A DNA stretch of 64,000 nt. It comes from an uncultured delta proteobacterium (lineage in GTDB: Bacteria > Desulfobacterota > Syntrophorhabdia > Syntrophorhabdales > WCHB1-27). Numbering within the stretch: position 1 is the stretch's first letter; each line of letters starts with the position of its first letter. The notes beneath the pieces were generated by a model. That model saw nothing but the letters and a program-made list of their open reading frames with translations. It did no database searches and was not told the DNA's origin. Positions 46,958 to 49,889 of the stretch are shown in pieces. The stretch covers positions 352,001 through 416,000 of the forward strand of contig CAWEPK010000008.1 in assembly GCA_963810935.1 (NCBI GenBank). Direction: 5' to 3'. The position numbers and the translations under genes were made by a program.

Positions 46958-48805
46958 TCATTTCGCGCTGCCGAAGGCGATAGGGTTCGCCGGGTCGGCG
47001 CTCCACACATAGAAGCTGCCGTCAAAGTTTCTCATTTTCTGGAACCCCATGAGGTACGCCAGGAAGAAACCGCTCGTCGAGCGCCAGCCGGTCCCGCAAT
47101 AGAAAATCGGCTCCCTGTCGGGCGTGATCCCCAGCCTTGCCCACTTGTCCCGCAGCTCTGTATAGCTCCGGAAAGTATCATCCTTCGTATTCACCAGGGT
47201 GTCCCAGTCGCCCTGCGACACGGCGCCCGGAATGCGCCCTTTCCTGGTAAAGAAAGGGTACGGGTTGGTCTTTCCCTCGAATTCCTCAAGCTTGCGCACG
47301 TCGACAAGGACGGCGGACTTGTTCAGGCCGCCCGAGACCGAGCGCACATAGTCGGGCGTCGCATTAAACTCTGGATGCAGCGGGGTCTCCGCACCGAAGC
47401 TCTTGACCGGAACGGGGTCGGCGGAAGCCTTTGCGATAGGGTAGCCCGCGGCCGACCACGCAGCGAAACCGCCGTGCAGCACCCTGACGTCCTCGACGCC
47501 CGCATACATCAGCGCCCATGCGACGCGGGTCTCTATCATCGGCACGATCCTGCCGATGCCGTATACGACAACAGTGGTATCTTTCGTAATCCCCAGGTCG
47601 GCCAAGGCAGACAATAGCCGTGCGCCCGGCAGGACCTTCGCATCGTCCGGGCCGGTGTAATCGGGATAGTATTTCGAGACGTCTTTCCCGTTCTCTACAT
47701 AGCTAGGATGGATCGACACGGCGCCGGGTATGAAGCCGCTCTCTTTCGATGAAGCCAGCCCGGAGATCGTGAAGCCCATGTAACGGACCTCGAGGATCAC
47801 ATATTTCTTGCCTGTATAGGTGGCAGGGTTCTTATTGTCGATCAGGTCCTTCACCCACGCCGGATATACGAGCTTCTCGTACCTGGCGAGCTTCTCCATG
47901 GGGAGCGAGACGTCCCGGGACCACTCGCGCATCGCGCCGTCATAGCTCGCGCAGCGAGGATATCCCATAAGTCGCAAGATAAAATAGACATTGGCGCTGC
48001 GGACGCCGCCGGCGCAGTAAGCCGCGACTTCCTTGTCGGGTGTGATGCCGCGCGACTCGAGGAGCTCTCTTATCTCCTTATACGGCAGGACGGTTCTGTC
48101 GCGGTTGTAAAAATAGAGGTAATTGATGTTGACCGCCGAAGGGATATGGCCGCCTCGCGGCTCGCCGTAAAGCTGCCAGCCGTTGAACTCCTCGGGGGTC
48201 CGCACGTCGATGAGCGCAAAGCCCTTGTCGTTCAATTTGGCCGCGATTTGCGGGGCCTGGATGGCGACGCGGTCGTTCGGGGCCGCCGTGAACCTCCCGG
48301 CCGGCGGCCTCGCGACGGCCTCTGTCTGCTTCGATCCTCCATCCGCAAGCCATTTCGGAAAACCTCCATCAAGGACATGCACATCGGCACAGCCGAGGTA
48401 CTCGAAGAGCCAGAAGAGCCACCCGGCCGTCCCGGAGGACTGGGCCGGGTCGTCGTAGATCACGAATTTCATATCCCTGCGGAGGCCGGCGGAGGTCAGT
48501 ATCTCCTCCAGCTCCCCGACGCTCCGTATCCTGTTACCCTCTCGCAGCCGGTCCCGCACCAGATTCACGGCGCCCGGGATATGAGACGCCTCGTAGCCGC
48601 TTGCCCGCGCGTCGATGACGACAAGGTCCTTCGACTCCAGATTTTGCTGGAGCCACCACGTTGAGACAAGCAAGCCCCCGTTGGGATAATCGCCGGCAGC
48701 AGAAGGTGCGGCCGGGCCTGCGTCTGTTGCCGCATACGCGGCTGCCGCGAGAACAAACGTCAACAGCAGCGCGATCGTAAGACCTGTGCAGTGCTTCACT
48801 TTCAT
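46958..48805 (-). CDS. Exported multi-domain rhodanese/sulfurtransferase (YnjE-like, four domains)
   Basis: Signal peptide; HIPGA and GHIPSA motifs; active loops YCAGGVRS and YCGTGWRS; YDG...EWS and FDGS...WS signatures. Confidence 0.92.
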   Translation of the reverse strand: MKVKHCTGLTIALLLTFVLAAAAYAATDAGPAAPSAAGDYPNGGLLVSTWWLQQNLESKDLVVIDARASGYEASHIPGAVNLVRDRLREGNRIRSVGELEEILTSAGLRRDMKFVIYDDPAQSSGTAGWLFWLFEYLGCADVHVLDGGFPKWLADGGSKQTEAVARPPAGRFTAAPNDRVAIQAPQIAAKLNDKGFALIDVRTPEEFNGWQLYGEPRGGHIPSAVNINYLYFYNRDRTVLPYKEIRELLESRGITPDKEVAAYCAGGVRSANVYFILRLMGYPRCASYDGAMREWSRDVSLPMEKLARYEKLVYPAWVKDLIDNKNPATYTGKKYVILEVRYMGFTISGLASSKESGFIPGAVSIHPSYVENGKDVSKYYPDYTGPDDAKVLPGARLLSALADLGITKDTTVVVYGIGRIVPMIETRVAWALMYAGVEDVRVLHGGFAAWSAAGYPIAKASADPVPVKSFGAETPLHPEFNATPDYVRSVSGGLNKSAVLVDVRKLEEFEGKTNPYPFFTRKGRIPGAVSQGDWDTLVNTKDDTFRSYTELRDKWARLGITPDREPIFYCGTGWRSTSGFFLAYLMGFQKMRNFDGSFYVWSADPANPIAFGSAK

Positions 48806-48875
48806 GGTAAATCCTCCTTGAGATAAGAAATCCGGCGCAGCATCATTCCGCGCCGTGACTCCTAAAGGAGGCGGA

Positions 48876-48983
48876 TCAAGGATTGGGGCGGGGAGGCTGC
48901 GAACACGGTGTTGAGCGGAAGCCGCACGGGCCCCCGTATGTTCCTCAGCCCGATGGAAACAACAAATCTGCTATTCGAATCAT
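48876..48983 (-). other. Leader ORF with in-frame UGA (candidate Sec) and SECIS-like hairpin
   Basis: MIRIADLLFPSG-UGA-GTYGGPCGFRSTPCSQPPRPNP*; SD-like AGAGGA; hairpin 48895-48950. Confidence 0.5.
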
Positions 48984-49235
48984 ATTCCTCTGGCCCTTTC
49001 TTGTGATACGTCATTACTAACAGAATCCCTTACCTCTGTCAAGCGGCGGTATAGGCGAAAAACCCCCAAGACTCCACGGCAAAAACTTTAACTTGGGTGT
49101 GAGGCACAGGCAGCGGAACACGCTGCCCCGGAGATGAGATTGCCCTGATCTTTGCCCTGCCCCCGGCCCGCCGTTTGACACCATAGGGCGCCCTGCGTAT
49201 AGTATGTTCGGACCGATGAAAACCAAGGAGACATT

Positions 49236-49889
49236 ATGGAGCTTTCGGAGATAATAAGAACGCGCAGGAGCATACGGGCATTCAGAAGCGAGCCTGTGCC
49301 GAGGAAGAAGATCGAGGAGTTGCTGAGCCTCGCTGTCCGGGCGCCTTCTGCTATAAACCTCCAGCCCTGGGAAATTACGGTAGTCATGAATGAGGAGCGG
49401 GAGAGGTTGAGCAAGAAGCTGCTAAAGTCGTACAGAGAGAAGAAAATCCAGTGCAGCCCCGGCAATGTCAAGCCGCTTGCGCAGGTATTTACCGCGCGCG
49501 GCGTCGCGTCCTTCGAGGGCATGAAGCCCTATCTCGACGAGGTGGGGTCCGATTTCAACACGTATATCAACGAGGGGAGCTGCAACTTTTACGGGGCGCC
49601 CGTGGCCGCCATTATCTGCATCGATAATGCCTTCTCGCAGGCCCGCCTGGTGGATATCGGGGCCCTGCTCGGCTATCTGGTGCTTGCCGCCCAGGATATG
49701 GGGCTTTCCACGTGCCCCATCGGGTTGATAACAGCCTATGAAGACGAGGTCAAAGACGCGCTCAACATCGCTGAGAACAAGGACGTGGTCATCGGGGTCG
49801 CCATCGGCTATCCCGATGAGTCGCACCCCGTAAACCGCTTCATATCGCCCAGGGACGGGATCGATGAACTGGTGCGGTGGATAGACTAA
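49236..49889 (+). CDS. Nitroreductase family protein
   Basis: RRSIRAF, APSAINLQPW, FYGAP, GLSTCPIG, IGYPD; upstream TTGACA-17-TATAGT. Confidence 0.93.
   Translation: MELSEIIRTRRSIRAFRSEPVPRKKIEELLSLAVRAPSAINLQPWEITVVMNEERERLSKKLLKSYREKKIQCSPGNVKPLAQVFTARGVASFEGMKPYLDEVGSDFNTYINEGSCNFYGAPVAAIICIDNAFSQARLVDIGALLGYLVLAAQDMGLSTCPIGLITAYEDEVKDALNIAENKDVVIGVAIGYPDESHPVNRFISPRDGIDELVRWID

Follow-up and report, generated by a model that had tools for sequence, protein, structure and literature searches.

A leader RNA with an in-frame UGA codon as a candidate selenocysteine-sensing attenuator of a predicted exported rhodanese and other selenium-related genes

We analyzed a stretch of 64,000 nucleotides (nt) from an uncultured delta proteobacterium (contig CAWEPK010000008.1, positions 352,001 to 416,000; hereafter, the window) whose minus strand carries a gene for a four-domain rhodanese, preceded by a leader with a short upstream open reading frame (uORF), an internal UGA codon, and a hairpin behind that codon. 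Comparison of this leader with its relatives, together with folding predictions, suggests that it is probably a ribosome-mediated attenuator that senses selenocysteyl-tRNA and turns the predicted exported rhodanese on in selenium scarcity. We consider it very likely that the family to which the leader belongs senses selenocysteine (Sec), and only slightly less likely that the family is on in low selenium. That the window copy works with this polarity is also probable, if less assured, because this copy is atypical in having a 1-nt deletion and a stronger terminator. More broadly, it is likely that these anaerobes run a selenium-starvation regulon by portable Sec-codon attenuators placed ahead of at least 16 unrelated gene classes, with unrelated leaders of like logic alongside, and that the targets name unrecognized selenium scavengers, including the rhodanese and the double-cubane reductases.

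In the mechanism that we propose, a ribosome translating the uORF would wait at the UGA for SelB and Sec-tRNA bound to the hairpin. With selenium present, it would reach the second stop and cover segment 2 of the leader, whereupon the terminator would form and transcription would end before the gene. With selenium absent, it would stall or stop at the UGA and cover segment 1, leaving segment 2 to capture the 5′ arm of the terminator, and RNA polymerase would read through. In copies joined directly to their gene, a segment complementary to the Shine-Dalgarno (SD) sequence of that gene (anti-SD) may provide a second lock. Segments 1:2, 2:3, and 3:4 of the leader can pair, and this is the layout of classical attenuators (outlined in PMC3892789). 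What was observed directly is the parts of the leader, how they are conserved and covary, and which genes lie downstream; the ribosome steps are inferred.

Below, G000 denotes the window's own genome, other G numbers denote other genomes, L numbers denote loci, and C numbers denote contigs. A DNA search of the class gave matches in 26 of 96 genomes. The training alignment (A1) holds 32 copies, among them the distinct metagenome loci L123 and L125, which have the same leader ahead of the same rhodanese. A covariance model built from the copies located 91 places in 52 of the 96 genomes; 60 copies outside the training set were retrieved and examined (the held-out copies), for a total of 92. A second alignment (A2) consists mostly of held-out copies, with the terminator but not the antiterminator used in fitting it; four rows that were duplicates or came from the training set were left out of it, and two remain among its distinct rows. 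Counts leave out L155 (the same DNA as L136), L124 (identical to L123), a decayed partial copy in L147 (G034:C12:29558-29714), and three 20-nt BLAST matches in G029.

All 92 copies come from one order of anaerobes, with homologs labelled Syntrophorhabdaceae, and when 151 genomes sampled from the phylum were searched with strict filters, no leader match turned up beyond that order. A distant copy (L025, in a Syntrophus record; E of 0.02 to 0.04) lies ahead of a MauE-like gene and a rhodanese ortholog. BLAST of the leader against G000 found no second copy, but the covariance model did recover one (C8:21834-22040), inside a selenium gene island. Rfam had no match over the leader, either at the gathering score or at E values up to 10. 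selA is present in 91 of the 96 genomes, and the five without it are also without the leader, which is within chance and makes co-occurrence uninformative. Many copies keep the decayed first codons of a double-cubane gene and then lead into an unrelated gene, indicating that the leader has been copied and reused. At one locus (L136:1132-1340 and 1469-1677), the whole leader is tandemly duplicated before a cysteine (Cys)-type hdrA, which would place two attenuators in series. Within a single genome, the uORF-hairpin pattern is not distinctive: a generic genome scan for a uORF with a hairpin gave 41 cases ending in TGA, 34 in TAG, and 20 in TAA (6, 8, and 1 when a terminator was included), and single-sequence folds of the window leader reached z values of −1.4 to −1.6 at best relative to shuffles, which is not significant. 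It is conservation across genomes that lifts the leader above chance, and by these comparisons the leader is a conserved RNA family.

Of the 92 copies, 88 have TGA as the internal codon, and the four others, all held out, have TAA (3) or CGA (1). The distance from ATG to UGA is 12 codons in 29 and 14 codons in 3 of the 32 training copies, and the uORF starts 11 to 15 codons before the UGA in 51 of the 60 held-out copies. The next in-frame stop comes 60 nt after the UGA in 75 copies and 57 nt after it in 6 (81/92 in total), and the column of this second stop holds TAA in 56 copies, TGA in 20, TAG in 9, and no stop in 7. The retention of an in-frame stop of any kind at this distance indicates that the frame beyond the UGA is under selection; selection for any stop, in frame, at this place is what would be expected if ribosomes pass the UGA.

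The hairpin behind the UGA resembles a Sec insertion sequence (SECIS). Its seven-pair stem is paired in 99.1% of alignment cells, with a covariation score that was reached by none of 500 shuffles and lay above all slid controls. The second loop position is G in 91/92 copies, at +18 to +20 after the UGA, and the SECIS hairpins of selD and fdh in G000 open at +18 to +19, the same spacing. One SECIS criterion is a G as the first or second base of the loop (PMC13582414, excerpt), and the leader hairpin, to judge from its sequence, has the features by which bacterial SECIS elements are recognized. A preliminary description of this DNA had proposed the uORF, the UGA, and the hairpin, and all three are conserved in relatives (the hairpin in 91/92 copies), with the UGA not freely exchanged for UAA or UAG. 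The hairpin itself had to be redrawn: the apical GCGG/CCGC stem proposed there is not the minimum-energy fold and is not shared by the family, whose conserved upper stem reads GGGGGCC/GGCUUCC, and the proposed lower stem is without clear covariation. An exchange between UGA and Cys at codon 13, which was also looked for, occurs in 0 of 92 copies, which suits a sensing role better than a catalytic Sec.

The spacing of the second stop bears on a decidedly improbable alternative, in which the UGA is a true stop and SelB-GTP-Sec-tRNA binds the hairpin directly, shifting the fold without read-through. SelB repression via a SECIS-like leader element has a precedent in the 5′ untranslated region of Escherichia coli selAB, where a leader hairpin senses Sec-tRNA via SelB and represses when Sec is plentiful (bioRxiv 10.64898/2026.03.03.709296, excerpt), and the peptide after the UGA is not conserved in frame in the window copy or in L157. 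However, a stop kept in frame 57 to 60 nt past the UGA in 81/92 copies, with 3-nt indels, is hard to explain unless ribosomes pass the UGA. Furthermore, the selAB hairpin is 3 nt from the SD, which SelB blocks directly (same excerpt), whereas the hairpin studied here is inside a uORF behind the UGA, about 100 nt from the SD, and is coupled to a terminator. It is least probable of all that the uORF encodes a small functional selenopeptide and that the terminator merely ends its transcript. Some residues do recur in the uORF peptide before the UGA, where third codon positions are slightly more variable (entropy of 0.99 versus 0.73 and 0.89); yet no copy has a Cys variant, no CxxU-like motif is present, the frame changes after the UGA in 2 of 32 copies (the window copy and L157), and many unrelated genes have acquired a copy of the leader that still carries the SD and the decayed first codons of the ancestral gene. 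From these features, the leader appears to be neither a selAB-type SelB operator nor a functional selenopeptide.

The attenuator that we favor instead centers on an intrinsic terminator and a competing antiterminator, both of which the preliminary description had overlooked. The terminator hairpin is paired in 93.5% of cells, with 18 cells showing double changes, and its score was reached by 0 of 500 shuffles and exceeded the slid controls. The last uORF codons (segment 2) are complementary to the 5′ arm and loop of the terminator (90.6% of cells paired in the training copies), and one pair of this antiterminator reads UA in 14, UG in 10, CG in 6, and otherwise in 2 of the 32 copies. Antiterminator covariation in the training alignment was above 500/500 shuffles and all slid controls. 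In A2, 84.8% of antiterminator cells are paired, with 38 double changes, and 0 of 500 shuffles reached the score. The antiterminator and the terminator share one arm and are mutually exclusive, and both covary.

The preliminary description had placed the output elsewhere, proposing that a ribosome reading through the UGA masks the anti-SD and thereby turns translation on. The geometry for this holds in the window copy (SD predicted to be 56% free), but only 3 of 32 copies are predicted to have a free SD (probability P > 0.5) when a ribosome stands at the second stop. The model also fails at L123 and L125, the two closest rhodanese orthologs, whose gene begins about 117 nt beyond the ancestral start. 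By our own count, the first real gene lies more than 100 nt past the uORF stop in 21/32 copies, too far for the anti-SD to reach, and termination is therefore the output that the copies would share. The conserved terminator and antiterminator predict expression in low selenium, the opposite of the anti-SD model. The conserved reading frame, the near-invariant UGA, the SECIS-like hairpin, Sec machinery in the lineage, and the selenium-linked targets were upheld, and anti-SD masking was set aside as the mechanism of the family.

To model ribosome position, leaders were folded with a mask. At equilibrium, the terminator had a P of >0.5 in 30/32 training copies with no ribosome, in 17/32 with the ribosome at the UGA, and in 32/32 with the ribosome at the stop; the corresponding counts among held-out copies, after the 7 weakest of the 60 were dropped, were 34/53, 18/53, and 45/53. 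In a co-transcriptional snapshot (before the last arm of the terminator emerges), the antiterminator had a P of >0.5 in 26 of 32 stalled leaders and in 1 of 32 when segment 2 was shuffled. The co-transcriptional switch was seen in 39 of 53 held-out copies, and the equilibrium switch in about half of the copies. These predictions suggest that a stall at the UGA favors read-through and that completion of the uORF favors termination.

Genes behind the leader were labelled from motifs, and the labels were verified on examples. The first recognizable gene encodes a member of the double-cubane reductase family in 29 of the 92 copies and its activase in 1, HdrA in 14, a MauE-like protein in 7, formate dehydrogenase (FDH) in 6, a Cys desulfurase or Sec lyase in 6, a MetN-type ABC protein in 5, YedF/TusA in 4, SelB in 4, the four-domain rhodanese in 3, and MvhD, a molybdopterin oxidoreductase, and a glycosyltransferase in 2 each; four are single cases, and 3 are without assignment. 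All 20 checkable targets with Sec counterparts are Cys forms (13/13 readable HdrA, 5/5 FDH, and 2/2 MvhD; 2 others are cut off), and the Sec forms of HdrA, FDH, and MvhD in G000 have TGA where the leader-borne targets have Cys. As read from these labels, the targets are selenium-handling genes and selenium-free backup enzymes, a set that makes sense as on in low selenium. In Methanococcus, ModA, YedE, Tus, and UroD-like methyltransferase transcripts rise upon selenium depletion (PMC11097638, excerpt); the rise of similar gene classes there fits this polarity. Copies before MetN-type ABC importers (L167, L192, L202, L209, and L221) suggest selenomethionine uptake, and those before selB itself (L150, L206, L214, and L172) could form a feedback loop on the decoding factor.

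The genome of the window has genes of the machinery that such a sensor would use. Among the sel genes looked for in G000, selA is intact, a Sec-type and a Cys-type selD are present together with three tRNA-Sec matches, and at least seven genes have TGA in alignment with a Cys (selD and two each of fdh, hdrA, and mvhD). selB is frameshifted in G000 and intact in 3/3 congeners.

Several observations weigh against the attenuator reading, some for the family and some for the window copy. In the family, three copies have TAA and one has CGA at the sensor codon (L209:1808-2021, L220:1831-1963, L222:140-273, and L218:106-319). Two of the TAA copies, L220 and L222, are short, weak model matches with no recognizable terminator, which would fit decay to constitutive expression, and natural TAA or CGA variants are possibly locked states. 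In addition, the covariance model used for searching slightly rewards TGA. Pairing of segments 1 and 2 occurs in 90.6% and 80.5% of cells, with covariation not above shuffles. The terminator keeps a P of >0.5 in a sizable share of copies with the ribosome at the UGA (the 17/32 and 18/53 given above), the antiterminator also forms without a ribosome in 18/32 snapshots, and its absence with the ribosome at the stop is built into the construction of the mask. Mask folding gives thermodynamic predictions, and the copies are related, so that counts are not independent events. At the locus and in its genome, selB (C5:224288-226169, L108) carries three single-base indels; no Sec paralog or any other copy of the rhodanese was found in G000; and 5 of 10 close Cys-type rhodanese loci (≥52% identity; L026, L027, L028, L035, and L126/L127) have no such leader within 3 kb. 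The window copy itself has a 1-nt deletion after the UGA, confirmed as real, and its family stop is replaced by CAA; a ribosome at the new TGA stop, which is 8 nt beyond the old stop site and 3 nt short of the anti-SD, would cover the anti-SD. The terminator of this copy is without the family bulge and has a P of 1.0 in all three ribosome states at equilibrium; the fold with terminator and anti-SD comes to −49.1 kcal/mol and the antiterminator fold to −36.9 kcal/mol, a stability advantage of about 12 kcal/mol for the former.

Because the window terminator wins at equilibrium in every state, turning the gene on would need kinetic trapping. In the co-transcriptional snapshot, the window antiterminator reached a P of 0.65 to 0.68 when stalled, 0.01 with no ribosome, and 0.07 with segment 2 shuffled. 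Long-read error had been considered as the source of the 1-nt deletion and was ruled out by contigs from other runs. Short-read contigs of two other runs cross the leader gaplessly (X1 record 8, 48589-49299, with one silent substitution in codon 11; X2 record 10, 48531-49029, with 0 differences), so the leader sequence is not an assembly error.

The altered stop could also mean that the window copy, behind a leaky terminator, has the opposite polarity: read-through to the shifted stop would park the ribosome on the anti-SD and open the SD, with expression in plentiful selenium, for example, for handling an excess. This is unlikely. The window SD is predicted to be 0.55 to 0.56 free with the ribosome at the stop versus 0.04 at the UGA (footprints of 11 to 16 nt), the U-tail is weaker than the family consensus, and the deletion and new stop are real; however, the arrangement is found in just 3/32 copies and is inapplicable to L123 and L125, the terminator and antiterminator pairings are intact in the window copy, and the leaders of the family precede genes for Cys backups and for uptake. 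A shade less probable is that the family is a working attenuator of which the window copy has decayed to a near-constitutive off state or to an unregulated leader. The bulgeless terminator, the frameshift after the UGA, the lost family stop, and the frameshifted selB in the assembly would all suit decay, but the copy keeps the UGA, the loop G, all seven SECIS pairs, the complementarity of segments 1 and 2, and a replacement stop only 8 nt off. As for selB, its neighbor in G000 is frameshifted too, unlike the congener ORFs matched on C8, C9, and C10, and this points to local sequencing error; such an error is the likely, if unproven, source of the selB frameshifts. A working attenuator that is on in low selenium is the more probable reading of the window copy, with reversed polarity or decay as genuine alternatives.

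The rhodanese has four PF00581 stretches over its 615 amino acids (aa), as the preliminary description had it, and a signal peptide predicted by eye; its closest named homologs carry the label Syntrophorhabdaceae or Syntrophales. The three C-terminal domains can be aligned with YnjE and with the sulfurtransferases of Protein Data Bank (PDB) entries 6ktv and 6h98 (441 to 460 aa), and the Cys570 loop aligns with the same Cys-Gly-Thr-Gly-Trp-Arg loop in these proteins. We take 6ktv and 6h98 to be EanB of Chlorobium. The window protein differs from YnjE and EanB in having four domains rather than three, a second Cys loop, and Sec-type relatives. The function of EanB is described in PMC9516567 (excerpt); an EgtD-type histidine methyltransferase, the EanB partner, was not among the 10 neighbors scanned, the whole genome not having been searched for EgtD.

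In 5 of 80 related genome loci, a TGA with a SECIS-like hairpin stands at the Cys570 position (L029:4680, L030:4668, L031:4575, L055:4797, and L073:2795). These relatives are probable selenoproteins, which gene callers would end about 45 residues early, and TGA at the catalytic Cys makes the window rhodanese the Cys form of a partly Sec family. Among the 80 loci, the only leader model match within 3 kb was at L025 (weak; E of 0.04); 420 nt upstream were read by eye for 25 of them. In a congener (G012), the rhodanese homolog is oriented divergently from Cys-selD and is preceded by an unrelated UGA leader; its SD is predicted to be 0.27 free when stalled versus 0.02, which is the same predicted polarity, on when stalled. 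Ahead of Cys-selD is a UGA leader of a third kind, which is conserved in all 3 genomes that have this gene and whose equilibrium fold switched in just 1 of the 3. Judging from its context, the rhodanese most likely serves in capturing or carrying selenium or sulfane species beyond the cytoplasm and would itself need no Sec.

In trpL-type attenuators, a stall turns expression on and completion turns it off. The leader is like those of E. coli (PMC3892789, introduction, excerpt) in having a short uORF on which the position of the ribosome is predicted to pick the antiterminator or the terminator. Where the trp and his types string together sense codons for the amino acid that they sense, it has a single UGA, predicted to be recoded, with a SECIS-like hairpin, and it is therefore a variant rather than a member of that type. 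Its read-out would be SelB-Sec-tRNA, so a trace element, and its targets are Cys backups and selenium handling, not a biosynthesis operon. In Treponema primitia fdhF(Sec), selenium likewise acts via UGA stalling on transcription elongation, but it does so within the selenoprotein gene, which is lowered in low selenium (PMC3892789, excerpt), whereas the dedicated leader described here is predicted to raise other genes. The same excerpt reports that T. primitia fdhF(Cys) rises in low selenium, giving no leader mechanism, and states that no natural counterpart had been reported for a synthetic unnatural-amino-acid attenuator. In the Methanococcus HrsM regulon, Cys isoforms, putative transporters, the Tus sulfurtransferase, and methyl-selenide methyltransferases rise upon selenium depletion, a similar set, but HrsM is an archaeal protein repressor acting on DNA, with no uORF; the signal for this response is stated there to be unknown (PMC11097638, excerpt). 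We found no Sec-codon attenuator in the open literature searched, subscription papers being outside its coverage.

If the proposed mechanism is true, the cell would gauge selenium with the ribosome, SelB, and a SECIS placed within a dummy peptide. For bacteria, a Sec-codon attenuator would be a concrete and cheaply testable answer to the question of how selenium is sensed and how cells switch from selenoproteins to Cys backups; it would also show that attenuation by a genetically recoded amino acid occurs in nature. Used as a tag, the leader would mark the genes behind it as candidates for selenium uptake and mobilization. Double-cubane reductases have been linked to SelD, without explanation (bioRxiv 10.1101/2022.07.06.499078, excerpt), and the set of leader targets would independently support this link. 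The leader could also act as a genetically encoded reporter of Sec-tRNA.

The features of the locus are collected in the table. Every sequence string named in the preliminary description was found on the minus strand at the position given for it, including the second TGA ending at 48876 and CCTCCTT at 48871-48865. Two of its assignments held in part. The strings of the proposed promoter, TTGACA (49042-49037) and TAGTAAT (49019-49013) with a 17-nt spacer, are present, and TTGAC(A/T) is kept 53 to 82 nt 5′ of the uORF in 27/32 copies, but the −10 is weak, and a consensus promoter scan did not report this promoter. Similarly, the AGAGGA taken as the SD of the uORF (48991-48986) exists, but its gap to the ATG at 48983 is just 2 nt, and the purine-rich stretch of the family is AAAGGG instead; an SD-like triplet precedes the uORF in only 21/32 copies.

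Table. Features of the rhodanese leader locus in window coordinates
Feature	Positions	Strand	Remarks and basis
Putative sigma-70 promoter	49013..49042	-	−35 TTGACA perfect, −10 weak; sequence and family comparison
Ribosome-binding region of the uORF	48986..48999	-	AAAGGG at 48999-48994 matches the purine-rich stretch of the family; alignment A1
Leader uORF	48876..48983	-	12 codons, UGA, 22 codons, TGA stop; sequence and family start position
Sensor codon UGA (predicted Sec)	48945..48947	-	TGA in 32/32 training and 56/60 held-out copies
Segment 1, flanking the UGA	48943..48951	-	Predicted partner of segment 2 if no ribosome is present; consensus fold, weak support
SECIS-like hairpin, 7 bp	48917..48935	-	Loop CGUGC, G at 48927 (+18 after the UGA)
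Segment 2 (5′ strand of the antiterminator)	48887..48901	-	Within the last uORF codons; pairs with the terminator arm
Anti-SD CCUCCUU, candidate second translational layer	48865..48871	-	Fold; helix paired in 86.8% of cells, covariation marginal
Intrinsic-terminator-like hairpin (segments 3 and 4) and U-rich tail	48821..48862	-	Hairpin proper at 48855-48833; covariation
Rhodanese Shine-Dalgarno AAGGAGG	48813..48819	-	Sequence; wider SD region at 48821-48810
Four-domain rhodanese, 615 aa	46958..48805	-	ATG at 48805; Pfam; Cys264 and Cys570 loops

Beyond the window, G000 has a selenium island (C8:11260-26268; L109 and flanks) with genes for ModABC-like and second ABC importers, two UroD-like methyltransferases, a corrinoid protein, Cys-SelD, Cys-MvhD, a double-cubane-family protein, a Cys desulfurase, and YedF-like, MauE-like, and small rhodanese proteins. 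The island carries three UGA leaders of differing sequence, with the UGA at C8:19787, 20009, and 21884. The three tRNA-Sec copies of G000 (C4:30323-30418, C6:4921-5016, and C11:126660-126755) have near-identical upstream DNA and lie near contig ends, and they are probably strain variants or duplicated assembly (contamination of 7%). Upstream of the leader, on the plus strand, a near-consensus promoter (TTGACA-17-TATAGT, 49175-49203) would serve a divergent nitroreductase gene (49236-49889). Finally, the soil samples of runs X2 and X3 contain a second leader copy, of canonical form and from a different organism, which matches the window at 48937-48976.

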